Shown: positions 7,643 through 35,085 of the stretch, piece by piece
Position numbering within the stretch: position 1 is the first letter of the stretch
Layout of the letters: each line of letters begins with the position of its first letter
IMG/VR virus record: IMGVR_UViG_2529293138_000008
Span: 1-35,920 of that record
Reading direction: 5' to 3' (one strand)
Length of the DNA: 35,920 bases
Source of the DNA: a virus
Lineage: Duplodnaviria; Heunggongvirae; Uroviricota; Caudoviricetes
Position numbers and translations under genes: made by a program
The notes under the pieces: generated by a model
Told to the model about the DNA's origin: nothing
The model's database searches: none
The model's input: only the letters and a program-made list of their open reading frames with translations

Positions 7643-8602
7643 ATGAAAATTTGTATCGACGACGGCTCCACCAACATCAAGCTGGCATGGACTGAGAACG
7701 GCGAACGCCGCAACGCCATCAGCCCGAACAGCTTCAAGTCGGAATGGTCTGCGCCGTTCGGTGGCACGACGCCTGCAAACTACATGCTTGATGGCGTGCG
7801 CTATGGTTTTGATCCGGTCAGCGATCGCTTTGTCCAGACGACCGACACGCAATATCAGTACAGCGATGTGAATGTCATTGCCATACATCACGCACTGCTC
7901 AAATCAGGCATCACACCACAGGAAGTGGATGTGGTTGTCACCCTGCCACTGAGCGAGTATTTCGACACAAACGCCCAGCCGGATATGACCAACATCAACC
8001 GCAAAAAAGCGAACGTTATGCGACCGGTGGAATACCAGAACGGCGAAGCATTCACTATCCGTAATGTACGGGTTATGCCTGAATCCATTCCGGCTGGCTT
8101 TAAAGCACTGGCTGACATGAGTCCGTTTGAATCCCTGCTGATTGTGGATTTGGGCGGAACCACGCTGGATGTGGCAAAGGTTCAGGGACAACTGGCAGGT
8201 ATCAGCCAGGTGTTTTGCGATCCACACGTAGGCGTTTCACTGATGACCGATGCAGTGCTGTCGGTGATGGCCACCAACGGTATGCGTACCAGCCACCACA
8301 TCGCCAATACCATTATCGAACATCGCCACGATGAAACCTGGCTGCGCCAGCACATCCACAATGACGCGCATTACGCCAGCCTGATGGCGGTTATTAGTGA
8401 AAAGGAAGAAACACTGAAACAACGCGTGATCCGTGCGCTGGCGGGTTTTTCGGGTTACGGGCGGGTGATGGTTGTCGGTGGCGGGGCGGAGATTGTGGCA
8501 CCCGCTATCCGCGAAGCCTGCGGAGTTAATGCGACTTTCATCGCGGACGGGGTGCCACAGTTTGCTCTGGTTAATGGGCTGTACGCAATGGACAAGGAGT
8601 AA
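7643..8602 (+). CDS. parM: ParM/StbA-like actin-type segregation ATPase
   Basis: N-terminus MKICIDDGSTNIKLAW matches plasmid R1 ParM (MLVFIDDGSTNIKLQW, from memory). Further matches recalled: ISPNSFK, YSDVNVIAIHHALL, VMPESIPAG, DLGGTTLD, GGGAE. Length 319 aa, same as ParM. Confidence 0.8.
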   Translation: MKICIDDGSTNIKLAWTENGERRNAISPNSFKSEWSAPFGGTTPANYMLDGVRYGFDPVSDRFVQTTDTQYQYSDVNVIAIHHALLKSGITPQEVDVVVTLPLSEYFDTNAQPDMTNINRKKANVMRPVEYQNGEAFTIRNVRVMPESIPAGFKALADMSPFESLLIVDLGGTTLDVAKVQGQLAGISQVFCDPHVGVSLMTDAVLSVMATNGMRTSHHIANTIIEHRHDETWLRQHIHNDAHYASLMAVISEKEETLKQRVIRALAGFSGYGRVMVVGGGAEIVAPAIREACGVNATFIADGVPQFALVNGLYAMDKE

Positions 8603-21718: not shown

Positions 21719-24268
21719 ATGAGTACCACAACACGAAAATTTAAAACCGTTATCACCGATACGGGTGCAAAAAAATTAGCGCAGGCAGCCGCGTCAGATG
21801 GTAAGCCTGTCCGCCTGACTCATATGGCCGTAGGCGACGGTGGCGGCACGTTGCCCACACCAGACAGTAAGCAGACCCGTCTGGTGCATGAGGTGTGGCG
21901 ACACACTGTTAATCGCGTCATCCTGGACGCAACACATCAGAACCGCATTATTGCAGAGCTGGTTATTCCTCCAGAAACGGGCGGATTCTGGATCCGGGAA
22001 ATTGGTGTATTTGATGAGCACGGCGATTTAATCGCGGTGGGCAATACTGCCGAAAGTTACAAGCCAGCCGTTGCCGAAGGGTCCGGTCGTGCACAAACAT
22101 TTCGCACCATTCTGACCGTATCCAGCACTGCCGCCGTGGCGCTTACCGTGGATAACACCATGGTGATGGCCACAGTGGATTACGTGGATGACAAACTGAA
22201 AGAGCATGAACAGTCACGACGTCACCCGGACGCCTCGCTGACCGCAAAAGGCTTTGTTCAACTCAGTAGCGCCACTAACAGCGATTCTGAAACGCTGGCG
22301 GCAACGCCGAAAGCGGTTAAGGTCGCGTATGATCTTGCTAACGGAAAATATACAGCGCAGGATGCCACAACAGCGCGAAAAGGCCTTGTCCAGCTCAGTA
22401 GTGCCACCAACAGCGATTCTGAAACGCTGGCGGCAACGCCAAAGGCAGTAAAATCAGCCTATGACAATGCAGAGAAACGTCTGCAGAAAGACCAGAACGG
22501 TAGAGATATTCCAGATAAGGGCGCTTTCCTGAATAACATTAACGCGGTCAGTAAAACAGACTTTGCTGCTAAGCGCGGTATGCGTTATGTGCGGGTTAAC
22601 GCTCCTGCAGGTGCAACGTCTGGAAAATATTACCCTGTTGTTGTTATGCGCTCTGCTGGATCAGTAAGCGAGCTGGCATCAAGAGTAATTATTACTACGG
22701 CAACACGAACCGCAAACGATCCGATGAATAACTGCGAGTTTAATGGATTCGTTATGCCTGGCGGCTGGACTGACAGGGGGCGTTATGCCTATGGAATGTT
22801 CTGGCAATATCAAAACAATGAACGAGCCATTCACTCAATAATGATGAGTAATAAGGGCGATGATTTGCGCTCTGTGTTCTATGTTGATGGCGCTGCTTTC
22901 CCTGTTTTTGCGTTTATCGAAGATGGCCTGTCAATATCCGCACCGGGTGCTGATCTCGTTGTTAATGATACGACCTATAAGTTTGGGGCAATAAATCCGG
23001 CGACTGAATGTGTCGCGGCGGACGTTATCCTTGATTTCAAGAGTGGGCGTGGTTTTTACGAATCTCATTCGTTAATCGTTAACGATAACTTGTCGTGCAA
23101 AAAACTTTTTGCCACAGACGAAATTGTAGCGCGTGGTGGTAATCAGATTCGAATGATAGGTGGGGAGTATGGTGCATTATGGCGTAATGATGGCGCTAAA
23201 ACTTACCTGCTGCTTACCAATCAAGGTGATGTTTATGGTGGCTGGAATACATTAAGACCGTTTGCTATTGATAACGCAACCGGCGAACTGGTTATTGGAA
23301 CCAAACTGTCCGCAAGTCTGAACGGTAATGCATTAACAGCAACAAAGCTGCAAACGCCAAGACTGGTTTCTGGTGTTGAGTTTGATGGTTCCAAAGATAT
23401 TACTTTAACCGCCGCGCATGTGGCTGCTTTTGCCAGAAGGGCAACGGATACATATGCCGATGCGAATGGTGGCGTTCCCTGGAATGCCGAATCAGGCGCT
23501 TACAATGTCACCCGCTCTGGCGACAGCTATATTCTGGTTAACTTCTATACCGGAGTCGGAAGTTGCCGGACCTTGCAGATGAAGGCGCATTACAGAAATG
23601 GTGGTCTGTTCTACCGTTCTTCAAGAGACGGTTATGGTTTTGAGGAAAACTGGGCAGAAGTTTATACCTCGAAAAATCTTCCACCAGAAAGCTACCCAGT
23701 CGGCGCACCAATCCCGTGGCCATCAGATACCGTTCCGTCTGGTTATGCCCTGATGCAGGGGCAGACTTTTGACAAATCTGCTTACCCGAAACTTGCAGCC
23801 GCTTATCCGTCAGGCGTGATCCCTGATATGCGTGGCTGGACGATTAAGGGCAAACCTGCCAGTGGTCGGGCCGTATTGTCTCAGGAACAGGACGGCATTA
23901 AATCGCACACCCACAGCGCCAGCGCATCCAGTACGGATTTGGGTACGAAAACCACATCGTCGTTTGATTACGGTACTAAATCCACAAATAACACCGGAGC
24001 ACATACACATAACTTTGCTTACAACAATACTTCAGCATACGCAGATACTCCTGGTACTGGCGGAGGAATGCATGCAACTAACACCAGCAAGACAGCAAGT
24101 AATCGCGTATTAAGCGCAGGAGCTCATACTCATACAGTAGCAATAGGTGCGCATACACATACGCTCGCTATTGGTTCGCATACACACACCATTACCATTG
24201 CCGCTTATGGTAACGCGGAAAACACCGTTAAAAACATCGCATTTAACTATATTGTGAGGCTTGCATGA
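21719..24268 (+). CDS. H: Tail fiber protein (P2 gpH-like), with internal repeats and His-rich tip
   Basis: 849 aa. Duplicated 44-residue module containing [21 protein letters not shown] (DNA direct repeats around 22250-22322 and 22382-22454). C-terminal GAHTHT-type HxH repeats typical of fiber tips. Confidence 0.85.
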
Positions 24269-25155
24269 TTACGCTCATTCTTTCTGCACCAGTAACAGAA
24301 ATGGCTGAAGCATTTAAGCGAGTATTCGCAAATGCAGATAATGTGAATATTGTCGGAAAGCCATTTGAAACAATCAGAGAATTTGACTGCATGGTAAGTG
24401 CGGCAAATAGTTTCGGCCTGATGGATGGCGGCGTTGATGCCGCCATTACCACATTCTTCGGTACTCAGTTACAGGCCCGTGTTCAGAATCACATTCTTCG
24501 TGAATGTCTCGGCGAACAGCCTGTAGGTTCTGCATTTGTCATTGAAACGGGGCATAATCATCACCCCTGGTTGGTACATGCGCCAACAATGCGTGTTCCG
24601 TTGACAATTGACGGAACAGACGCTGTATATAACGCAACCTGGGCAGCTCTGCTTGCCATCTTTCAGCACAATAAAAACGCAACGACAGACATGAAAATAA
24701 AAACAGTGGTATTCCCTGCAATGGGGGCCGGATGTGGTCAGGTGCCGTTTGAAAGTGTTGCCCGGCAGATGAAGCAGGCATGGGATAACTTTAATAAAAA
24801 AACAGAATCAATTAACTGGGAATACGCACAATCCCGCCAGTCGGCAGTATTTGGCACATATGCATACTGTCCGGGTAATTCTGTTTGCCGTTATGCGGAT
24901 ACTAAATATATTGGATGCGGCGATTATCGGACGTATTGCTTACGGTCAGGGCAGGCATGTATTAATCCTGAACATCAGGTTGATGATGTGCTGGCTAATA
25001 ATCGCTCTCGCCCGGGTTCGCATGCACATCGAATTAATCCAGAAAATCCCGTAGGCCATCTCACCTCTGGTGAACATAGCCACGGAGGAGGCATCATTAT
25101 TGGTGCTCACCCCCATACGCTCAATAAACAATATTCTGTCTCTGGTATTAAGTAG
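24265..25155 (+). CDS. Macro-domain (ADP-ribose-binding/processing) protein with Cys/His-rich, fiber-tip-like C-terminus
   Basis: ATG overlaps the H stop (ATGA). N-terminal ~180 aa carries three macro-domain motifs: [30 protein letters not shown]...[32 protein letters not shown]-terminal ~110 aa has five Cys and three HxH motifs (SHAHR, EHSHGGG, AHPHTL) resembling the H tip. Confidence 0.6.
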
Positions 25156-25163
25156 AGGTGAAC

Positions 25164-25742
25164 ATGGATTTCAGAATGAGTGAACAACCACGGACCATAA
25201 AAATTTATAATCTGCTGGCGGGAACCAATGAATTTATTGGTGAAGGTGATGCATACATTCCACCTCATACAGGTCTGCCAGCAAACAGTACCGATATTGC
25301 GCCGCCAGATATTCCGGCAGGATTCGTAGCCGTTTTCAACAGTGATGAGGCATCGTGGCATCTCGTTGAAGACCATCGGGGAAAAACCGTCTATGACGTG
25401 GCTTCCGGCGACGCGTTATTTATTTCTGAACTCGGTCCGTTACCGGAAAATGTCACATTGCTGTCACCGGAGGGGGAGTATCAGAAGTGGAACGGCACAG
25501 CCTGGGTGAAGGATACGGAAGCAGAAAAAATGTTCCGGATACGGGGCGCTGAAGAAACCAAAAACAGCCTCATGCAGGTAGCCAGCGAGCATATTGCGCC
25601 ACTTCAGGATGCCGTAGATTTAGATATTGCGACGGAGGAAGAGGTATCGTTACTGGCTGCATGGAAGACATATCGGGTATTGTTGAATCGCGTTGATACA
25701 ACAGTGGCAGCGGATGTTGAGTGGCCAGTCGCACCACAATAA
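25164..25742 (+). CDS. G: Tail fiber assembly chaperone (P2 gpG/Tfa-like)
   Basis: ORF track 25158..25742; ATG 25164 follows an agagg SD. Position directly after the fiber genes; acidic C-terminus typical of Tfa proteins. Confidence 0.7.
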
Positions 25743-26514: not shown

Positions 26515-27009
26515 TCAGAGCAGCCCCTTAACTGAGCTGGCCGCGCTATTAAGGGATGATGTCACCTTATCTTTGAAGCCGGACAACATATCGCTGAACG
26601 ATGAGGATTGCAGACGCTCCCGCAAATCCTCATCACAGCGTTCAAGGGTCAGTGAAAATTCTATCTTTTTCGCCTTACCGTAGCGATCAAACTCGGAACG
26701 GGTCGTATTCGTTCCGGTCAGGACATACATGCCGTAAATCTGCCCGACACCATCAATCAAAGGCCAGGGTCGTCCTGTATACGCCTGCGTGGTCAGCAGC
26801 GACAGCGACACTTCGCCACCTGTAATTTCAGGATAAAGCACACCAGAAAGAACGATGCGATCATCACCTGCACCGATATACTGCCAGCTTGCTGAACGGT
26901 TAACGCGTTCATTTTTCACATGCCGCCAGCTTTTGTTTTGCTGTAACTGCTGATGCGGCAATGTGCGCAGCTCAAAAACAAACATGCCGTAGATCATCAT
27001 CATGGTCAT
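26515..27009 (-). CDS. U: Tail protein (P2 gpU-like)
   Basis: 164 aa. MMMIYGMFVFELRTLPHQQLQ..SWRH, GVLYPEITGG, PLIDGVGQIYGMYV, IEFSLTLER parallel recalled P2 gpU. Confidence 0.85.
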   Translation of the reverse strand: MTMMMIYGMFVFELRTLPHQQLQQNKSWRHVKNERVNRSASWQYIGAGDDRIVLSGVLYPEITGGEVSLSLLTTQAYTGRPWPLIDGVGQIYGMYVLTGTNTTRSEFDRYGKAKKIEFSLTLERCDEDLRERLQSSSFSDMLSGFKDKVTSSLNSAASSVKGLL

Positions 27010-27015
27010 GACTCC

Positions 27016-29859
27016 TCAATCTTTATCGTAAAAACTGCCACGCCCGGCACGGGCTCGCCGTTCCATTTCTGCCCTGACCATTTCACCGACCAGTTTCGCC
27101 AGTTCGCGGGGATTCTGCGTAACAACGTTATGCAGATGAACATGAATTTCACCGCCAAATCCGGAGACAGCAGGCTCCCGGTTACGGGAAGTTGCAGGAA
27201 CTGATGCCACTGGCGATCGTATGGCCTCCGCCACCGGGCGGGAGCTGGCCGCAACAACAGGGACCAGCGCCGGAGGCAGCGGAGCCGGGACCACGGGGGT
27301 GATATTAATTGCGGGGACAGGCTTACTGACCTGCGCAATCTTCCGCTCCTGCCACTCCCCACGAACAGCAAGTGCGCGAGGCAGGTTCTTAAAGACAATA
27401 TCGCCGGGGCCAATGCGTTTTTTCGTCTCATCAACCAGCTTACCTGTGTTATCAGCAATTTTGCTGAGTCTGCGTAGCGTCCCGGTATTGCTGTCTGTGA
27501 GTGGTTTGTTGTCTTTGGGTTTATCACCTCCGGTGCCATTGCCATTTTCCACAGGCTTCGGCAGATTGATTTTCGCCAGGTCCCCCTGAAGCAAGGCAAC
27601 CTTGTCCTGAAGAATGGCCGCACGCTGTGCGTCTTCGATTTTCTTTCTCGCCCTTTCCGCTTCATCCGGAAGAACACCGAGTTTTTCAAGTATCCATGCC
27701 AGCGTATCCAGCAGCATTTTTGCAGGTGTCAGAACAAGTTGTAACGCACCGCCAAGAACGTTACCGAATACCTTGCCAGCACTGGTACATTTATCCAGCG
27801 TTTCCTTGCTGGACTCCATCGGTGACAGCAGCGATTTAAACCAGTTAAACACCTGGCTGATCCCACTCCCGATTGCGTCAAAAACAGGACCAAACCGTTC
27901 AAAGGTTTCGCGCAACGGGGTCAGCCTTTCCATAATCCCGCTGAACACCCCGGCAAAAAATGCCCTGATGGGATCCCAGTATTTCCAGATAAGAACGGCA
28001 GCTCCGGCAAGCGCAGCCACGATAAGACCAACCGGACTGAACAGCGCCCCGATAGCACCTCCCAGTAAAGAAACGGAACCCGTCACCATTCCCCACAGCG
28101 CAGGCAACACTCTGACGACATTCATTGACCGGGTAAGAATGTCAAAACCAAGACGCAGTTTTGCCAGCGGGCCAGCAAGCACACCAATAGCCAGCGACAA
28201 CGAGCCAACCGTTGCAGTCATTGCCAGCAGTGCACCGCCTGCAATCAGTAGCTGGCGCGTCAGTGCGGGATGGGCCTGCGCCAGCGCCGTCACCTTTGAT
28301 ACCACACGCGTGAGCCACTGCGTGACAGAACGCAGCGGACCGTCAATCAGATCTGCAATGCGGATGCGCAACCCTTCCCATGCACTGCTGAGTGATTTCA
28401 GATCGCCGTCAAGGTTGTTGGCCATAACCTTTGCCGTGCGTTCAGCCTCACCGCGCGCGCCTTCAAGTTCTTTTCTCAGTTTGGGTAAGGAGCCGTCACC
28501 TGCCGCATCAACGAGGGCCATAAATGATGTGAAAGCCTCTTCTCCGGCAATGTCCTTAAAGAACGATACCCGGTCAACTTCCCCGTATTTGCGGGTAGCT
28601 TTATAAAGGTCAGCCAGCACATCCTCCATCGGGCGCATTTTGCCCCCGGCATCCGAGACAGACACGCCAAGCTCTTTCAGCGCCTCTGCTGCCGCCTTTG
28701 GCGGTGATGCCAGACGAGCCAGGCTGGCACGCATTGCCGTACCAGCATCACTCCCCCTGATACCCATATTCGCCAGCACGCCCGCCATCGCTGCGGCCTG
28801 CTCCAGCGATATTCCCAGCTTACCCGCCACCGGACCTGCATATTTCATGGTTTCACCCAGTGCGCGAAGGTCAGTGTTGGTACGGGTAAACGCTGCGGTG
28901 AGTGTGTCGCCGACCCGGTCCATCTGGTCAGCAGAAAGGCCGAACTGCGTCAGGATATTTGAGCCAATATCCGCCGTCTCGCCGAGATCCATACCGCCAG
29001 CCGTTGCCATGCTCAGCACGCCGGGAAGCGCAGCCTGAATGGCCTGCGGAGTAAAACCAGCCATTGCAAGAAATGCCTGTCCACTGGCGGCATCGCCTGC
29101 GGTGAACTGCGTTTCAGAGCCAAGTTTTAACGCCTGCTCACGCAGCGCCTTAAACTGCGGGCTGTTCTGGTCAATTCGCGTCAGCGCCTGAACGCGGGAC
29201 ATCTCTTTCCCGAACCCGATCGCGGGCTGCAAAAAACGCCCGGCAGCATAGCCGCCCGCCGCTGCCGCACCAGTTGCCAGCGCACCACCTGTTTTCAGTT
29301 TTCCAGCGGTTTCCTGCGCGCGCGAATACCGCTCACGCGCCCGCGTTACACGCGCAAGCGCCTGCCGTTCGCGTTCAAGCTGGTTGTTGTACTGTTCGGT
29401 GCGTCTGATGGCCTGCTGGATGGTGTTATCGCTGCCTGTCAGGGAAATGCCGTGGCGTTTCAGTTCTCCGCCAAGCTCCCGCATTTTCTGAATTTCCCGT
29501 GTGCGCGATTCATTCAGGCGTTCAAGCCGGGTGCTTAACTGCTGCATCAGCTTTTGTTGTTTTTCGCTGAGCACTGTACCCGTGCGTTGTAACTGATTAA
29601 GGGCGTTAAGCTGGCGTCGTGCTTTCACGATACCCGCATCCGCTTTACTGACAGCGTCGCGGGCGCGCTCAAATGAACGCGCCTGACGCTCGAGATTTTT
29701 GATCGCCCCCTGCGTTCGCTGGATGGAGTCACCAAACTGCCCCATCAGGCGGCGTGCGTTTTCGGCAGGCCGGGTCAGCCTGTCAACGGCGCTGAAAGCG
29801 ACCCGGATATCAAGAGTCTTCATTGTCTGCATTCCCGCTGCGAAGTGCCGCCCGCTCAC
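27016..29859 (-). CDS. T: Tail tape measure protein (P2 gpT-like)
   Basis: 947-aa ORF with coiled-coil N-terminus, Gly/Ala-rich hydrophobic middle and long helical C-terminus. GTG at 29859 or ATG at 29832/29823 are all possible starts. The 330-aa plus-strand ORF at 27614..28606 is a shadow. Confidence 0.85.
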   Translation of the reverse strand: MSGRHFAAGMQTMKTLDIRVAFSAVDRLTRPAENARRLMGQFGDSIQRTQGAIKNLERQARSFERARDAVSKADAGIVKARRQLNALNQLQRTGTVLSEKQQKLMQQLSTRLERLNESRTREIQKMRELGGELKRHGISLTGSDNTIQQAIRRTEQYNNQLERERQALARVTRARERYSRAQETAGKLKTGGALATGAAAAGGYAAGRFLQPAIGFGKEMSRVQALTRIDQNSPQFKALREQALKLGSETQFTAGDAASGQAFLAMAGFTPQAIQAALPGVLSMATAGGMDLGETADIGSNILTQFGLSADQMDRVGDTLTAAFTRTNTDLRALGETMKYAGPVAGKLGISLEQAAAMAGVLANMGIRGSDAGTAMRASLARLASPPKAAAEALKELGVSVSDAGGKMRPMEDVLADLYKATRKYGEVDRVSFFKDIAGEEAFTSFMALVDAAGDGSLPKLRKELEGARGEAERTAKVMANNLDGDLKSLSSAWEGLRIRIADLIDGPLRSVTQWLTRVVSKVTALAQAHPALTRQLLIAGGALLAMTATVGSLSLAIGVLAGPLAKLRLGFDILTRSMNVVRVLPALWGMVTGSVSLLGGAIGALFSPVGLIVAALAGAAVLIWKYWDPIRAFFAGVFSGIMERLTPLRETFERFGPVFDAIGSGISQVFNWFKSLLSPMESSKETLDKCTSAGKVFGNVLGGALQLVLTPAKMLLDTLAWILEKLGVLPDEAERARKKIEDAQRAAILQDKVALLQGDLAKINLPKPVENGNGTGGDKPKDNKPLTDSNTGTLRRLSKIADNTGKLVDETKKRIGPGDIVFKNLPRALAVRGEWQERKIAQVSKPVPAINITPVVPAPLPPALVPVVAASSRPVAEAIRSPVASVPATSRNREPAVSGFGGEIHVHLHNVVTQNPRELAKLVGEMVRAEMERRARAGRGSFYDKD

Positions 29860-30339
29860 GCCAGCTAACCACTTCGCCGGGCGTCATCATGAAGATTTCG
29901 GCGGGCGACCAGTTAAAAATAACGGCAATATCTGCCACAAAGTCTTCTATGTGCTCAAAGCACACAACCGTGATCAGGCTTCCGTCGCCTGTTCGTTCTT
30001 CCCGCCAGAGTCCGCACCGCTCAAAAAATTTACGGCAACCACACATAACTGAATAAAGTCACGGGATGCCATTTTTTTGATCGTCACTTCATCCAGTCGC
30101 GGTGATGTCACGCGTGACAGCAGCGTAAACATGGATTCCGCTTTCAGATTCAGCACATCAGACAGTGACAAATCTCGCAGAGATCCAGCCTGCTCAATAG
30201 CTCCGGTGATCTCCACATACGTGATTTTTTCGCCGCCTCGCTCAATTGGTTGGGTAAGTTTTACGCCACGCTCACTGGTTTCTTTCACAGTGTCAGTAAC
30301 TACCGTATTTTCGGTATCGATGTTTTTCGTCTCTTTCAT
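29810..30339 (-). CDS. gpE+E' -1 frameshift fusion product (predicted)
   Basis: Frame arithmetic: E codons start at coordinates congruent to 0 mod 3; the 29810..30046 ORF is in the frame reached by a -1 slip. The A7 tract AAA-AAA-A (30078..30072 on the coding strand) lies in E frame as TIKKMA. E' overlaps the T start, as in P2 and lambda G/GT. Confidence 0.5.
29974..30339 (-). CDS. E: Tail assembly chaperone (P2 gpE-like)
   Basis: AGGAG SD upstream. Core region GEKITYVEITGAIEQAGSLRDLSLSDV resembles recalled gpE. Contains an A7 run at 30072-30078. Confidence 0.75.
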   Translation of the reverse strand: MKETKNIDTENTVVTDTVKETSERGVKLTQPIERGGEKITYVEITGAIEQAGSLRDLSLSDVLNLKAESMFTLLSRVTSPRLDEVTIKKMASRDFIQLCVVAVNFLSGADSGGKNEQATEA

Positions 30340-30393
30340 CAGGAAACTCCTTTCAGTCAGAGGCGACGCACTGCGCCGCCTGCATATTACTTA

Positions 30394-30906
30394 TCAGCCA
30401 AGCCCAAGCGCGGAACGGATGCGATCGGGCACAATGTCCTTGCCGTCCTTCCGGTAAATGAAGTTCAGCAGGTCAATCTCCCACAACGGGCGATCGTTAA
30501 CACTCAGCTTGTAGTAGGTGTTTTTAATGGCGTAAGTGTGTGATGTGGCTTCGCCCTGTTTGGCTTCCCCCATATCAATTTCCGTCACACGTCCGCGCAT
30601 TTCGACTTCATACAGGTCGCTTTCATCATCGGTGTAGTATTCACCCGCAAAACGCAGTAGCGTGCCGTCAATCGTGCCGCCATACTTCAGGAACAGCTCA
30701 CGAACTGCGCCCCCCATGACAAAGCTCGCATCAAGCGCGGAGTCGTCCAGACCGAGATCAATACTTACCGCACCCATCATGCCGCCCCCCCGGTAGCTGT
30801 CGGTTTTGCGCGTCAGCTTGGGCAGAGTGACGGACGTCACCTTACCTACTTCGTTTTCACCATCCACAAACAGCGTAAAAAAGCGAAGATGTTTTGGCAC
30901 AGCCAT
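30394..30906 (-). CDS. FII: Tail tube protein (P2 gpFII-like)
   Basis: 170 aa (P2 FII about 172 aa), directly downstream of the sheath gene on the same strand. Confidence 0.9.
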   Translation of the reverse strand: MAVPKHLRFFTLFVDGENEVGKVTSVTLPKLTRKTDSYRGGGMMGAVSIDLGLDDSALDASFVMGGAVRELFLKYGGTIDGTLLRFAGEYYTDDESDLYEVEMRGRVTEIDMGEAKQGEATSHTYAIKNTYYKLSVNDRPLWEIDLLNFIYRKDGKDIVPDRIRSALGLG

Positions 30907-32090
30907 CAGGCACCTCCCAGCACCGCAAATGCGGGTTCAAAGTATTCATCAGTAAACGTCTGGTAAAGCTCCATGTCTTCCAGTGGCGGAACGGGCGTAT
31001 ATTTGTAGCGAATACGCACACGCCCCTGACGTAAATCCGTGGTGCTGTTATCCACCACGTCATACCAGCACTCCGCGCCAATCAGTTTCCCGGCAGTAAC
31101 CAGTGAATCCAGTTTTGCCCTGATGGCACTGATAACATCTTTCACGTTCGCAGGCGTCAGTGGACTGTCGATGGTTTCAAACTGCGCTTCCGCAATTGAA
31201 TCAGCCAGCACCTGTGCGGTTCGGGTATACACCTCAAAGATGTAGGCATTCGTTTCCGGTGTGCGGTTGCCCCAGAAGCGGAACCCGTTGCGACGAATAA
31301 TGGTCGTGATTTCTTTGTTGTTGAGGCTGTTGGCATCACTGTCTTCGGCCTGCAACGACCAGAACACATGCCTCGACATCCCCAGCACATTTTTAACCGG
31401 AACGTTGGACAGTGATTTGTGCCAGCCCTGCTCATGGTCAATGTATGCACGAAGACCGCACGCATAGGCAGGCGCGGGGAACGTTTCGTTTTTGCCACTT
31501 TTGGGGTTGTAGGCGATGAAGTCCGGCCATAAGAGCATCACCTCACGTTCGTTGAATTTCTGGCGGTAGGTAATTGCCTCTGCCATCGTGTTACAGCCAT
31601 TACATGAGGCATACACAAACGCGCGCAGTTTACCTGCAATCACGCACAGGGATTTTGTTACAGCCTCCGTGTCCAGCTCCGGCGCGGCCAGAATACGCGG
31701 ACGGTATCCGATGCTTTCATCCTGCTCTGCAACAAGCAGCGCATACATCCCCGTATAGCTGCCGTCATCCTCAGAACCACCGATAACCAGTTGATCCTGC
31801 GTCTTACCGTCTTCTTCTTTGTGTTCAGCCACGCGAACGACGATCACCTTTGTGCTCACCTGGTCTGCGATGGCTTTAAGCGCACGATAAAGCGTCCCCG
31901 TTGTCCCGCATTTTCCCAGCACGTCATTGACGCGGGTCAGCAGTGTGGGCTTGTTCAGCGGGAACAGCTTCGCGTCCGCATCATCCGCCGTTGCCACGAT
32001 ACCGATAACGCTGGAATCAACATCGTTAATCGCTGTTACCAGGTCGGTATTTTCCGTAACACGGGCACCATGAAAACGAGTTTCACTCAT
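30906..32090 (-). CDS. FI: Tail sheath protein (P2 gpFI-like)
   Basis: 394 aa (P2 FI about 396 aa); ATG at 32090 with a GGGG-type SD. Confidence 0.9.
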   Translation of the reverse strand: MSETRFHGARVTENTDLVTAINDVDSSVIGIVATADDADAKLFPLNKPTLLTRVNDVLGKCGTTGTLYRALKAIADQVSTKVIVVRVAEHKEEDGKTQDQLVIGGSEDDGSYTGMYALLVAEQDESIGYRPRILAAPELDTEAVTKSLCVIAGKLRAFVYASCNGCNTMAEAITYRQKFNEREVMLLWPDFIAYNPKSGKNETFPAPAYACGLRAYIDHEQGWHKSLSNVPVKNVLGMSRHVFWSLQAEDSDANSLNNKEITTIIRRNGFRFWGNRTPETNAYIFEVYTRTAQVLADSIAEAQFETIDSPLTPANVKDVISAIRAKLDSLVTAGKLIGAECWYDVVDNSTTDLRQGRVRIRYKYTPVPPLEDMELYQTFTDEYFEPAFAVLGGA

Positions 32091-32247
32091 AGCTTCAGCC
32101 CCTTGTATCCGTTAAATGATTCGGCAACAATCATCACCCACCACGCGCGTAATCTCACCCCTGCGCCGTTCTCCCGCCACGGCGACAACAAAAAGCAGTA
32201 ACCCCCTCCGCACGCACATGCGACCATGCCGCACAGGGAGGGAACAG

Positions 32248-33357
32248 ATGACCGACACCACCATGCAATTGCTCAGTCAGGGCACAGACCCCGTAAAAAT
32301 GCCGGATTTTGATATTCTCGCGGAGGGTAAAACGCTGTCCGGCGTGGCAGAGCGCCTGATGAGCCTGTCGCTGACCGACAACCGGGGATTTGAGGCAGAC
32401 CAGCTCACCATCACGCTGGATGATGCGGATGGTCAGTTGCAGCTACCGCCACGGGGCGCGCGCCTGACGGTTCTCATTGGCTGGAAAGGCGAACCGCTGA
32501 CAGAAAAAGGGTCTTACATTGTTGATGAAATCGCACACGAAGGACCGCCGGACAGGCTGACTGTTTCAGCCAGAAGCGCAGATTTCCGGGATGAATTTAA
32601 CGTTAAACGTGAGGTGTCCTGGCATGATGTGACCGTTGAGCGTGTGGTATCCGCCATCGCTCATCGGTACGGTCTGAAACCGCAAATCAGCGAAATGCTG
32701 ATGGATATCGAAATCGACCACGCCGACCAGACCGAAGAAAGTGACATGTCCTTCCTTACGCGCATGGCGGAAATGCTGGGCGCAATCACTACGGTAAAAA
32801 GCGGTAATCTGTTATTCATCATGCCCGGTGGTGGCGTGAACGCACAGGGCCAGCCGTTGCCATCGTTCGCCATCACGCGCAGCAGCGGCGATCGCCATCA
32901 GTTCCGCATTGCTGACCGCGAGGCGTATACGGGGGTACGCGCTTACTGGCTTGATCTTAATTACGGGAAAAAGAAAAAAGTCAGCGTGAAACGCCGCAAA
33001 CCGCCAAAACCGAAAAAAGAGAAAAGCAGCAGCCGTGAAGGTGATTATATGGAAGGCGCGGAAGGCAATGTGTTTGTGTTACGCAAGACTTATCAGAACG
33101 AGCAGGCAGCAAGACGCGCAGCGGCGGCAAAGTGGCAACAACTACAACGCGGAGCCGCATCATTCTCCATCACGCTGGCACGTGGACGAGCAGAACTCTA
33201 CCCCGAAATGCATGGCACGGTAACAGGATTTAAAAGCGAGATTGATAATCAGGACTGGATTATTGCAAAAGCCGAGCACACCATTGATAACAGCGGCTTT
33301 ACCACGCAGCTTGAGCTTGAGGCAAAAATCCCGGAATGGATAGCAGAAACAGAGTGA
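32248..33357 (+). CDS. D: Tail protein D (P2 gpD-like)
   Basis: ORF track 32116..33357 trimmed to ATG 32248 after a gggaggg SD. LSGVAERLMSLSLTDNRGFEAD, ARSADFR, SWHD, lysine-rich linker and REGDYMEGAEGNVF align with recalled P2 gpD. Confidence 0.85.
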   Translation: MTDTTMQLLSQGTDPVKMPDFDILAEGKTLSGVAERLMSLSLTDNRGFEADQLTITLDDADGQLQLPPRGARLTVLIGWKGEPLTEKGSYIVDEIAHEGPPDRLTVSARSADFRDEFNVKREVSWHDVTVERVVSAIAHRYGLKPQISEMLMDIEIDHADQTEESDMSFLTRMAEMLGAITTVKSGNLLFIMPGGGVNAQGQPLPSFAITRSSGDRHQFRIADREAYTGVRAYWLDLNYGKKKKVSVKRRKPPKPKKEKSSSREGDYMEGAEGNVFVLRKTYQNEQAARRAAAAKWQQLQRGAASFSITLARGRAELYPEMHGTVTGFKSEIDNQDWIIAKAEHTIDNSGFTTQLELEAKIPEWIAETE

Positions 33358-33582: not shown

Positions 33583-35085
33583 ATGAACAAAAAGCTGTAT
33601 TTATTCCCAGACTCAAACATTTTTCTACAATGCAAGGACTTGACGCAGGTAAATTTTTCCGAGATTACTGCTTGTGATGAAGTATGTATCATTATTACAA
33701 GGCCCATTCAGCAAGAGATTGACCGCCAGAAAGGGCAAGGTAATTCCCGCCTATCCAAAAAAGCAAGGAAGGCTGCTAGCCTATTTAATCAAGTAGTTGA
33801 TTCAACTGACATGACTCTTGTTATTCGTGAACGCTCGCCGCGAGTTTTTCTTACCATGGATCTAAGCCTGAAACCATGTGAACAGTTATCTGAACAATTG
33901 GATTATCAGGAGGCCGACGATCGTTTTGTTGGTATTGCGGCAGGGTATTGCGCTGACGATCCAGATTCGGAGGTGGCAATCATTACCAATGATAGCGGTC
34001 CACGTTTTTCAGCAATAAAACATAATATAATCTGCTATAAAGTGCCTTCTTCATGGTTGCTTCCTGCTGAGCCAGATGAAAAGGATAAACAAATTAAATT
34101 GCTGGAAGCTAAGCTGAAGCAATTCACTCAGTCTATGCCCGATTTCAGCATTAAAGTAGCCGATGACGAGCAATTAAATATTGTACTTCCTTATTATACA
34201 GCTTTATCTGTATATGAAGTTGATAATTTGCTTTGTCAACTAACGGATGCATTCCCATTGGTTACAAACTTTGACAATGAACAAACTACCCCACAATCAC
34301 TAGAAAAAATCATCAAGTCATTTAGTCAACAGGAGTATTTCCCTGTATCAGCAGATGATATTTCTCTTTATAAAGAAAAACATTATCCACTTTGGAAAAA
34401 GCAGTGTGAAGAAATACTGAAAAACTGTCATACTCATATTAATCCGAAGGCAATAAAATACCCGCTGTCGTTTTTATTACAAAACACAGGTTATACTATC
34501 GCTGAACGTGCTGTGGTAACATTTACAGCAAAAGGAGATTTTCGTCTGTGTGGATTTAATTGGGAGATAATGGAAGAGCTGACTGAAAGCAAAAGGATTG
34601 ACCTACCTTCAGCCCCTACCGCCCCCAAAGGAAAATGGCGTAGTGTATGTGGCGTAACAGAAAGAATGCCTTACGCTTGGGGAGCTTTGGAAACACCGCT
34701 ATCCAGTATAATTTCAAAAGAAATTGGTCCTTTGTTATCTCTTACTCCAACAGAAAGGGATAAAAACGATTTTTATTATAAAGAAAAGAGAAATGAGCCA
34801 GTTCAAGTTGTATCGCTGGAATGCGAAGAGTGGCGTCATCAAGTCAAAGAAGAAATATTCCCGTTGTTCGTATATACAGCCAACAAACCAAAGAAAGTGA
34901 ATGGTGCAATTGAGGTGAGAGTTGATGCAAATAACCTTACCAATCCGGTCATTAAAACATTTAAATTAAAAATAACTATAGAAGAACATAGTGCATTTTC
35001 AACCATAACAGAAATGGTGCAGACATACATTCAAGAGCAGAAGAAAAGACAGAAAAGTTCTATTAGCGCACAAATCAAAACATGA
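33583..35085 (+). CDS. Stand-alone 500-aa protein with PIN-like N-terminal nuclease fold and uncharacterised C-terminal domain (cargo; candidate defence gene)
   Basis: AT-rich gene with its own sigma70-like promoter region (TTGATA ... TATATT around 33520-33560), gagg SD and downstream hairpin. N-terminal acidic residues in PIN-like spacing: LYLFPDSNIF (D), QQEID (E/D), QEADDRFVGIAAG (D), AIITNDSGP (D). C-terminal ~330 aa has no motif I recognise. Confidence 0.6.
   Translation: MNKKLYLFPDSNIFLQCKDLTQVNFSEITACDEVCIIITRPIQQEIDRQKGQGNSRLSKKARKAASLFNQVVDSTDMTLVIRERSPRVFLTMDLSLKPCEQLSEQLDYQEADDRFVGIAAGYCADDPDSEVAIITNDSGPRFSAIKHNIICYKVPSSWLLPAEPDEKDKQIKLLEAKLKQFTQSMPDFSIKVADDEQLNIVLPYYTALSVYEVDNLLCQLTDAFPLVTNFDNEQTTPQSLEKIIKSFSQQEYFPVSADDISLYKEKHYPLWKKQCEEILKNCHTHINPKAIKYPLSFLLQNTGYTIAERAVVTFTAKGDFRLCGFNWEIMEELTESKRIDLPSAPTAPKGKWRSVCGVTERMPYAWGALETPLSSIISKEIGPLLSLTPTERDKNDFYYKEKRNEPVQVVSLECEEWRHQVKEEIFPLFVYTANKPKKVNGAIEVRVDANNLTNPVIKTFKLKITIEEHSAFSTITEMVQTYIQEQKKRQKSSISAQIKT

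Follow-up and report, generated by a model that had tools for sequence, protein, structure and literature searches.

A Macro2-like macro-domain gene with a fiber-type tail at the fiber-chaperone junction of a P88-like prophage

We analysed the full 35,920-nucleotide (nt) sequence of IMG/VR virus record IMGVR_UViG_2529293138_000008 (the window), which is a complete P88-like (P2-family) prophage with integrase, gpA, ParM, portal, terminase, P2-type capsid protein, baseplate, fiber and gpD genes. Our subject is an open reading frame (ORF) that lies between the genes for tail fiber H and the tail fiber assembly protein Tfa and encodes a macro-domain protein (the macro gene; Table 1). Its ATG overlaps the TGA of the fiber gene as ...GCATGA..., in agreement with an original prediction, made by reading the window, that it is translationally coupled to H. 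The fiber has a P2-type N-terminus; its distal part, from ~residue 199 onwards, contains gp34-trimer, gp37_C and Collar domains and five HxH repeats. Residues 199-849 of H are 86% identical to the lambdoid-type Stf of an N15-like plasmid prophage, and Tfa is 90% identical to the Tfa of that same cassette; to judge from such comparisons, the distal part of H is horizontally exchanged. A mechanical ORF call puts the Tfa start at GTG 25158 (25158-25742). The real start is likely to be the ATG at 25164, given the comparison with K-12 tfaR and the GAGGTG Shine-Dalgarno, which is contained in the final bases of the macro insert.

As that prediction held, the N-terminal half of the protein is a macro domain. 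Pfam PF01661 matched residues 44-169 over its full model (1-118) with E=1.5e-18 (67.3 bits against a gathering cutoff of 22), and an AlphaFold2 (AF2) model built on 73 homologs had predicted local distance difference test (pLDDT) values of 96-99 over residues 1-200. Foldseek returned 215 PDB matches at E<=1e-3, and every listed match was a macro domain or a macro-derived design. The top PDB match by fold (Foldseek E=8e-12) was also the top match by family profile (E=5.5e-17): 1njr, the yeast protein Ymx7/YMR087W. The ORF could instead have been an ordinary Tfa or fiber fragment, yet no Caudo_TAP, Tfa PHROG or fiber-domain Pfam model matched it.

The profile alignment placed N48, D58 and H105 opposite Ymx7 N80, D90 and H145, for which Kumaran et al. 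2005 reportedly proposed a catalytic role. All three residues are invariant among full-length members of the subfamily; in the set of 73 relatives, conservation of N48 and D58 is 90% or more. Alignment of relatives also showed conservation of the putative ADP-ribose-site motifs, namely N48, the GG-V-D58 loop and the G154-x-G156-x-G158 loop. Ymx7, the best solved relative by both profile and fold, has the motif VSxxNSxGxxxGGxD in common with the window protein. The two proteins are only ~21% identical, however, and Ymx7 is a cellular enzyme of yeast tied to tRNA-splicing by-products, without a Cys4/HxH tail and without a phage or fiber context. The Pfam Macro_2 model (PF14519) scored the window protein weakly, at 21.2 bits against a cutoff of 27, and several relatives with 35-45% identity reached 31-37 bits. 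Models for other macro clades gave no assignment: NCBIfam antitoxin_DarG scored 12.2 bits against a cutoff of 250, PADLOC DarG gave 14.3 bits across 39 residues only, which is no DarG match, and the NCBIfam equivalogs for MacroD/YmdB O-acetyl-ADP-ribose deacetylases scored 16-54 bits, with none of the cutoffs (200-315) reached. By these profile and residue comparisons, the protein belongs with the Macro2-type (YMR087W-like) clade and its putative active site is intact. Within that clade only YMR087W has been studied; it converts Appr-1''-p (the 1''-phosphate of ADP-ribose) to ADP-ribose, reportedly without de-mono-ADP-ribosylating (de-MARylating) activity (PMC6397177).

Table 1. Features of the fiber-macro-Tfa locus and its flank, in window coordinates.
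Feature	Position	Strand	Basis
Tail fiber H, 849 amino acids (aa)	21719-24268	+	Pfam and PHROG matches
Junction: GAGG Shine-Dalgarno inside the last fiber codons (GTG AGG CTT GCA), then ATGA stop/start overlap	24254-24268	+	Sequence
Macro-domain accessory gene, 296 aa plus stop	24265-25155	+	ORF, Pfam, PHROG, AF2, profile
Macro domain, Macro2/YMR087W-like, residues 1-195	24265-24849	+	Pfam, AF2, Foldseek, profile, dN/dS
Linker and Cys4 block, residues 196-244	24850-24996	+	Conserved Cys pattern, pLDDT 65-84, dN/dS
Tail of fiber-like G(A/S)HxH repeats, residues 245-296	24997-25152	+	BLASTP against H, dN/dS
Tfa, tail fiber assembly protein, 192 aa	25164-25742	+	Pfam Caudo_TAP, E=1e-40
Hexapeptide-repeat O-acetyltransferase, 190 aa	25786-26358	-	PHROG 2154; CysE/EpsC/WcaB-like below family cutoffs

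The relatives of the macro domain are mostly small proteins found away from tail genes. A search of a representative library gave 2324 cluster representatives at E<=0.001, and most of the best 150 were stand-alone proteins of ~200 aa. In other phages, macro-only relatives sit among accessory, non-structural genes. Jumbo-phage homologs labelled 'tail protein' have hypothetical genes as neighbours, and because the relatives lie in accessory regions, these names look like propagated or neighbourhood annotation. The clade does occur in fusions, mostly eukaryotic, with Hpt, DUF6508, TPR, WD40, RRM and dual-specificity phosphatase domains; no fusion to a tail protein was found among the library relatives. 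The closest viral folds in BFVD were unnamed macro proteins from giant viruses and jumbo phages, with a Tk.4 homolog just 23rd among the viral fold matches. Protein 271 of the Pseudomonas phage PhiPA3 was also among the BFVD matches. On the modelled folds, chimalliviruses appear to encode a second, Macro2-like macro protein beside the DarG2-like AdfM (PhiPA3 gp108), which hints at a separate phage function for the Macro2-like clade.

Downstream of the macro domain, the protein carries a C-terminal extension. The three HxH motifs (residues 253, 271 and 282) and five cysteines (202, 208, 218, 225 and 232) first noticed there are all present, but C218 varies across the family and only four cysteines are conserved. 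They form the pattern AYC-x5-C-x16-C-x6-C ... HQ, in which C202, C208, C225, C232 and H237 are invariant or nearly so; it occurred in 62 of the 62 full-length tails examined and is kept down to 62% identity. AF2 modelled a beta-hairpin in this Cys4 block with moderate confidence (pLDDT 65-84). The block probably binds metal, perhaps at a zinc-ribbon-like site.

The tail that follows was said to resemble the tip of H, and at the level of the repeat the likeness is real. BLASTP of the window tail against the H C-terminus gave E=7e-4, and the tail of a Salmonella homolog (P0037) gave E=1e-7, with an identical 9-residue GAHxHxxxI period. The same G-A/S-H-x-H unit and 9-residue period characterize the needle repeats (PF03335) of T4 gp37/gp12-type and StfR/H-type fibers. 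Unlike those fibers, family tails have only one to four G(A/S)HxH units, no collar domain and not the fiber's C-terminal ending, in which they also differ from one another; trimerisation and metal binding are putative here. On the PF03335 model the window tail reached 9.6 bits (E=1.5), below the cutoff of 20, and 5 of 12 family tails gave sub-threshold matches. Residues 245-296 were unfolded in the AF2 monomer (pLDDT <50), and the C-terminal 104 aa modelled alone had a mean pLDDT of 47, as would be expected of a structure that depends on oligomerisation. A recent duplication of the fiber 3' end was ruled out as the source of the tail, as only 9-14-nt DNA matches were present. The idea of a general fiber-docking module was also considered; a database search for the C-terminal 104 aa on other enzymes returned only N-terminally shortened calls of the same family.

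Naturally occurring tails of differing length were seen among the IMG/VR loci (L018-L097) and database proteins (P0021, P0040 and P0018), and some forms stop directly behind the macro domain (~196 aa) or behind the first HxH (255 aa). Since the number of HxH units ranges from one to four and such shortened forms exist, the tail is labile and perhaps dispensable in some lineages. One Salmonella gene call of 190 aa (P0243) joins 55 N-terminal residues bearing a lysozyme/chitinase-like GRGLIQITG motif to the last ~135 residues of the macro protein, including the Cys4/HxH tail, and suggests rearrangements at the locus. In another call, of 463 aa (P0024), ParM domains are fused to the macro protein, probably as an artefact of assembly or recombination.

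Gene order was compared across 80 IMG/VR loci whose products are 62-93% identical to the macro protein. The fiber ORF ended 4 nt into the macro ATG in all 77 loci with upstream sequence, Tfa lay directly downstream in 79 of 79, and the fibers upstream of family members all ended in [FY]NYIVRLA. This fiber-macro-Tfa order recurs in lambdoid prophages, an N15-like linear plasmid prophage, P2-like phages and other myoviral prophages (Salmonella and Erwinia). Gifsy-1 STM2588.1n, gp19 of the Salmonella phages SEN4/SEN5 and CDS0053 of Escherichia phage Chuche, all with 63-87% identity, are true orthologs that share the order and the 4-nt overlap, differing in the number of tail repeats and in the C-terminal ending.

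The macro gene is accessory and optional, and its insertion point coincides exactly with the fiber/Tfa junction, as fiber/Tfa pairs abut directly in sampled genomes. When the fiber 3' end, macro gene and tfa were used together as a query, 4443 E. coli genomes were matched, with at least 80% of the query covered in 115 only. In the sampled rows, the fiber end and tfa (~91% identical) adjoin directly with no macro gene between them. An example is stfR-tfaR of K-12, where the same fiber end serves tfaR directly (GCATAATG). At the junction, K-12 GTGAGGCTTGCATAATG... aligns with window GTGAGGCTTGCATGA-[macro]-TAGAGGTGAACATG..., from which it follows that the insert exploits the Shine-Dalgarno contained in the conserved VRLA codons and supplies tfa with a new one. 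A fusion of H and the macro protein by frameshifting was considered, the macro frame being -1 with respect to H; inspection of ...GGCTTGCATGA... showed no slippery heptamer, and this was rejected.

Base composition also sets the cassette apart from its surroundings, at 44-52% G+C against 56-62% in the upstream baseplate genes. The macro gene matches the exchanged fiber segment, while the neighbouring acetyltransferase gene has 32-38% G+C. No sigma-70-like promoter above shuffle expectation and no terminator of its own were found for the macro gene. It travels with a mobile host-range cassette made up of the distal fiber, macro and Tfa segments.

The ORF was intact in 80 of 80 viral loci, although a few carry early stops. 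The macro domain had ratios of nonsynonymous to synonymous substitution rates (dN/dS) of 0.06-0.15, compared with 0.08-0.40 in the Cys block and 0.27-0.79 in the HxH tail. The gene is therefore functional and under purifying selection, with a fast-evolving tail. Between E. coli-type cassettes and the window copy, the macro domain is 97-98% identical, whereas the last 230 fiber residues are 61-79% identical; the globular domain has therefore not diversified in step with the receptor-binding end. Macro identity correlated most tightly with that of the N-terminal half of Tfa (r=0.92).

The family is larger and better annotated than the original prediction supposed. The ORF is PHROG 2613 (E=2e-142), and at least 1336 database proteins from Escherichia, Salmonella, Erwinia, Citrobacter and Enterobacter are named 'macro domain-containing protein' (by PGAP) or 'phage tail protein'. 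Among 5426 complete E. coli genomes, 128 carry the gene, including 22 plasmid copies. Annotation of Gifsy-1 STM2588.1n already cites pfam01661, so the novelty claimed had been overestimated. Likewise, a macro domain is foreign to the fiber module of P2 itself, as was stated, but the three-gene arrangement is recurrent and can be found annotated in public entries. Macro identity, then, is already in public annotation; the uncharacterised part is the combination of Macro2, Cys4 and fiber-type HxH elements in a mobile fiber-chaperone cassette.

The reading that we favour, tentatively and at somewhat less than an even chance, is that the gene encodes a late-made, cytoplasmic counter-defence enzyme directed against ADP-ribose-based host immunity, whose fiber-like tail oligomerises or docks it. 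An accessory enzyme that was recruited into the late fiber operon and acquired a fiber-like tail for oligomerisation or docking would fit the structural facts. The protein would be made late, along with the fiber and its chaperone, and would act inside the infected cell on an ADP-ribose-derived molecule. The substrate might be a 1''-substituted free ADP-ribose, such as a TIR (Toll/interleukin-1 receptor)/Thoeris-type signal or an Appr-1''-p-like compound; an ADP-ribosyl adduct seems less likely. Host immunity that is based on nicotinamide adenine dinucleotide (NAD+) and fires upon late structural proteins would in this way be blunted. The tail might let the enzyme assemble into oligomers, probably trimers and perhaps assisted by Tfa, or might dock it on the fiber or on Tfa. 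Some physical tie to the fiber or Tfa is suggested by the invariant position, the coupling and the repeat homology.

Two precedents are relevant to this proposal. Phage macrodomain proteins of the AdfM type (T4 Tk.4; PhiKZ gp104) counter the DarTG2 defence by removing ADP-ribose (PMC13309987; bioRxiv 10.1101/2025.11.20.689424), and tail fibers and their chaperones set sensitivity to type II Thoeris (bioRxiv 10.64898/2026.06.04.730250). AdfM, like the macro protein, is a stand-alone macro protein encoded by phages, but it belongs to a DarG2/ALC1-like clade with a catalytic Lys, is encoded outside fiber operons and has no tail. Several points weigh against a counter-defence enzyme. Late expression is an unusual timing for such a protein. 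Its Cys4/HxH extension and rigid fiber-chaperone position would be superfluous for a purely cytoplasmic enzyme, and point at least equally to a physical link with the fiber or Tfa. Because the domain is not DarG/AdfM-like, the only proven mechanism of a phage macrodomain is not directly transferable to it. Finally, literature searches, which also covered macro domains in Gifsy-1 and anti-Thoeris macrodomains, gave no functional study of any family member. Macro domains of phages have only recently been shown to act in counter-defence (AdfM against DarTG2), and the gene described here represents a different, almost unstudied clade (Macro2). If it does degrade or sequester ADP-ribose immune signals, it would add an enzymatic anti-signalling mechanism and would suggest that trigger genes (fiber and chaperone) and antidote genes are co-inherited.

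Among the alternatives, a virion-associated protein is the most serious, possible although on balance unlikely. The HxH/Cys tail would co-fold with, or dock on, the fiber needle or a tip-retained Tfa, and would display the macro domain as a lectin or enzyme for a phospho-sugar or ADP-ribose-like surface structure, or the protein would be delivered at infection. Such a role would account for the invariant, translationally coupled position between fiber and chaperone, for a tail built from the repeat unit of the fiber needle that does not fold as a monomer, and for the gene having moved together with the fiber cassette between P2-like, lambdoid, N15-like and other myoviral prophages. The small gene for the T2/S16-type gp38 adhesin, a protein that caps the tip of the fiber, offers a parallel in that it directly follows the distal fiber gene, and the macro protein could in principle attach to the tip likewise. 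Pfam and PHROG scans revealed no sequence or domain similarity between the two, however, and gp38 is a hypervariable receptor binder, whereas the globular domain here is the most conserved part of the cassette.

Other evidence does not favour a place on the virion. The same fiber and Tfa occur without the macro gene in sampled E. coli such as K-12, and the fiber end and Tfa are matched in thousands of genomes. Conservation of the macro domain greatly exceeds that of the fiber end, which is not the behaviour of receptor-binding parts. No macro-domain ligand is known on the enterobacterial surface. A fiber tip is extracellular, so that cytoplasmic delivery is hard to picture. The clade was not found fused to tail proteins among the library relatives, and its 'tail protein' names appear to derive from neighbourhood, with jumbo-phage homologs so named sitting among hypothetical genes. 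The fiber-attached, surface-acting role first put forward for the protein is thus weakened by this conservation pattern, by its dispensability for the fiber, by the accessory context of macro-only relatives and by the chemistry of the nearest clade, which acts on a small-molecule ADP-ribose derivative (PMC6397177). Were the protein nevertheless to ride on the fiber, it would to our knowledge be the first macro domain in a phage virion. Gifsy-1 resides in Salmonella Typhimurium LT2, a standard genetic system, and its ortholog makes either outcome directly testable.

We consider it distinctly unlikely that the gene is a moron serving lysogenic conversion or host benefit, expressed from the prophage and altering host ADP-ribose/NAD+ metabolism or excluding other phages. 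Its distribution is optional and patchy, the region past the tail-fiber genes is a known moron hotspot, and true morons do adjoin the cassette, such as the acetyltransferase in the window and a S-adenosylmethionine (SAM) methyltransferase, PagK or NleG elsewhere. The macro gene nevertheless lies inside the late operon rather than after it, overlaps the fiber stop by 4 nt, has neither a promoter-like site above shuffle expectation nor a terminator, and resembles in G+C the exchanged fiber segment and not the low-G+C moron next door. That acetyltransferase is a classic moron, possibly an O-antigen or exopolysaccharide acetylase for lysogenic conversion, and has a promoter-like site of its own (10 of 12 positions; 26438-26410) and a terminator with a 13-bp stem (25778-25749). 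A functional link between it and the macro gene had been entertained; such pairing was rejected, since the neighbour varies between cassettes, with a SAM methyltransferase, ParB, PagK/NleG or nothing in place of the acetyltransferase.

An accessory role in fiber assembly, in which the macro fold would serve particular fiber variants as an additional chaperone or scaffold without catalysis, strikes us as quite improbable. The gene does lie directly upstream of Tfa, its tail is fiber-like, and the N-terminal half of Tfa is its tightest correlate. That correlation is to be expected from simple linkage, though, and near-identical fiber ends (~91% DNA identity), paired with a Tfa of the same type, assemble when no macro gene is present. 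The invariant equivalents of the proposed Ymx7 catalytic set also argue that ligand chemistry is under selection.

A narrower form of the counter-defence idea, which we regard as very improbable, would have the Cys4/HxH tail mimic whichever part of the fiber, or of its complex with the chaperone, is detected by a host immune sensor (e.g., of the TIR/Thoeris type). In this way a trimeric Macro2 enzyme would reach the sensor and destroy or sequester the 1''-linked ADP-ribose signal at its source. Under trigger mimicry, the antidote gene would be hard-wired beside the trigger genes and would move with them between unrelated phages.

Least credible is a decaying, functionless remnant, e.g., a chimera in which a macro gene is joined to a residual fiber 3' end: the fast-evolving tail, variable repeat number, shortened forms (255 and ~196 aa) and N-terminally truncated gene calls might suggest one, but the selection analysis has largely refuted it, the ORF being intact across the viral loci with low dN/dS in the macro domain and Cys block, and with the Cys4 pattern retained in the most divergent copies, so that the pseudogene that could have undone the original prediction is not what we see.

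Several further features of the window deserve mention. In H, residues ~765-800 (24011-24120) differ from Stf of the N15-like plasmid prophage by 27- and 11-residue gaps and substitutions, the rest being 86% identical. The segment lies between the descending and ascending HxH repeats and, to judge from this local divergence, is probably the hypervariable receptor-binding tip. The minus strand (26515-32090) carries the genes for gpU, the tape measure (947 aa), tube and sheath, and the plus strand those for the baseplate, the fiber and gpD (32116-33357); this split-strand arrangement is unlike that of P2 itself and common to P88-like phages. Just past gpD, near the prophage end, a plus-strand ORF of 500 aa (33583-35085) has an N-terminal PIN_4 domain (E=4e-8) and may be cargo of the prophage (e.g., a nuclease of defence or toxin-like type) or belong to the flanking host DNA. 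The window also encodes a full-length ParM actin-like segregation protein with StbA_N and ParM C-terminal domains (7643-8602, plus strand), which is likewise annotated in P88-like phages.

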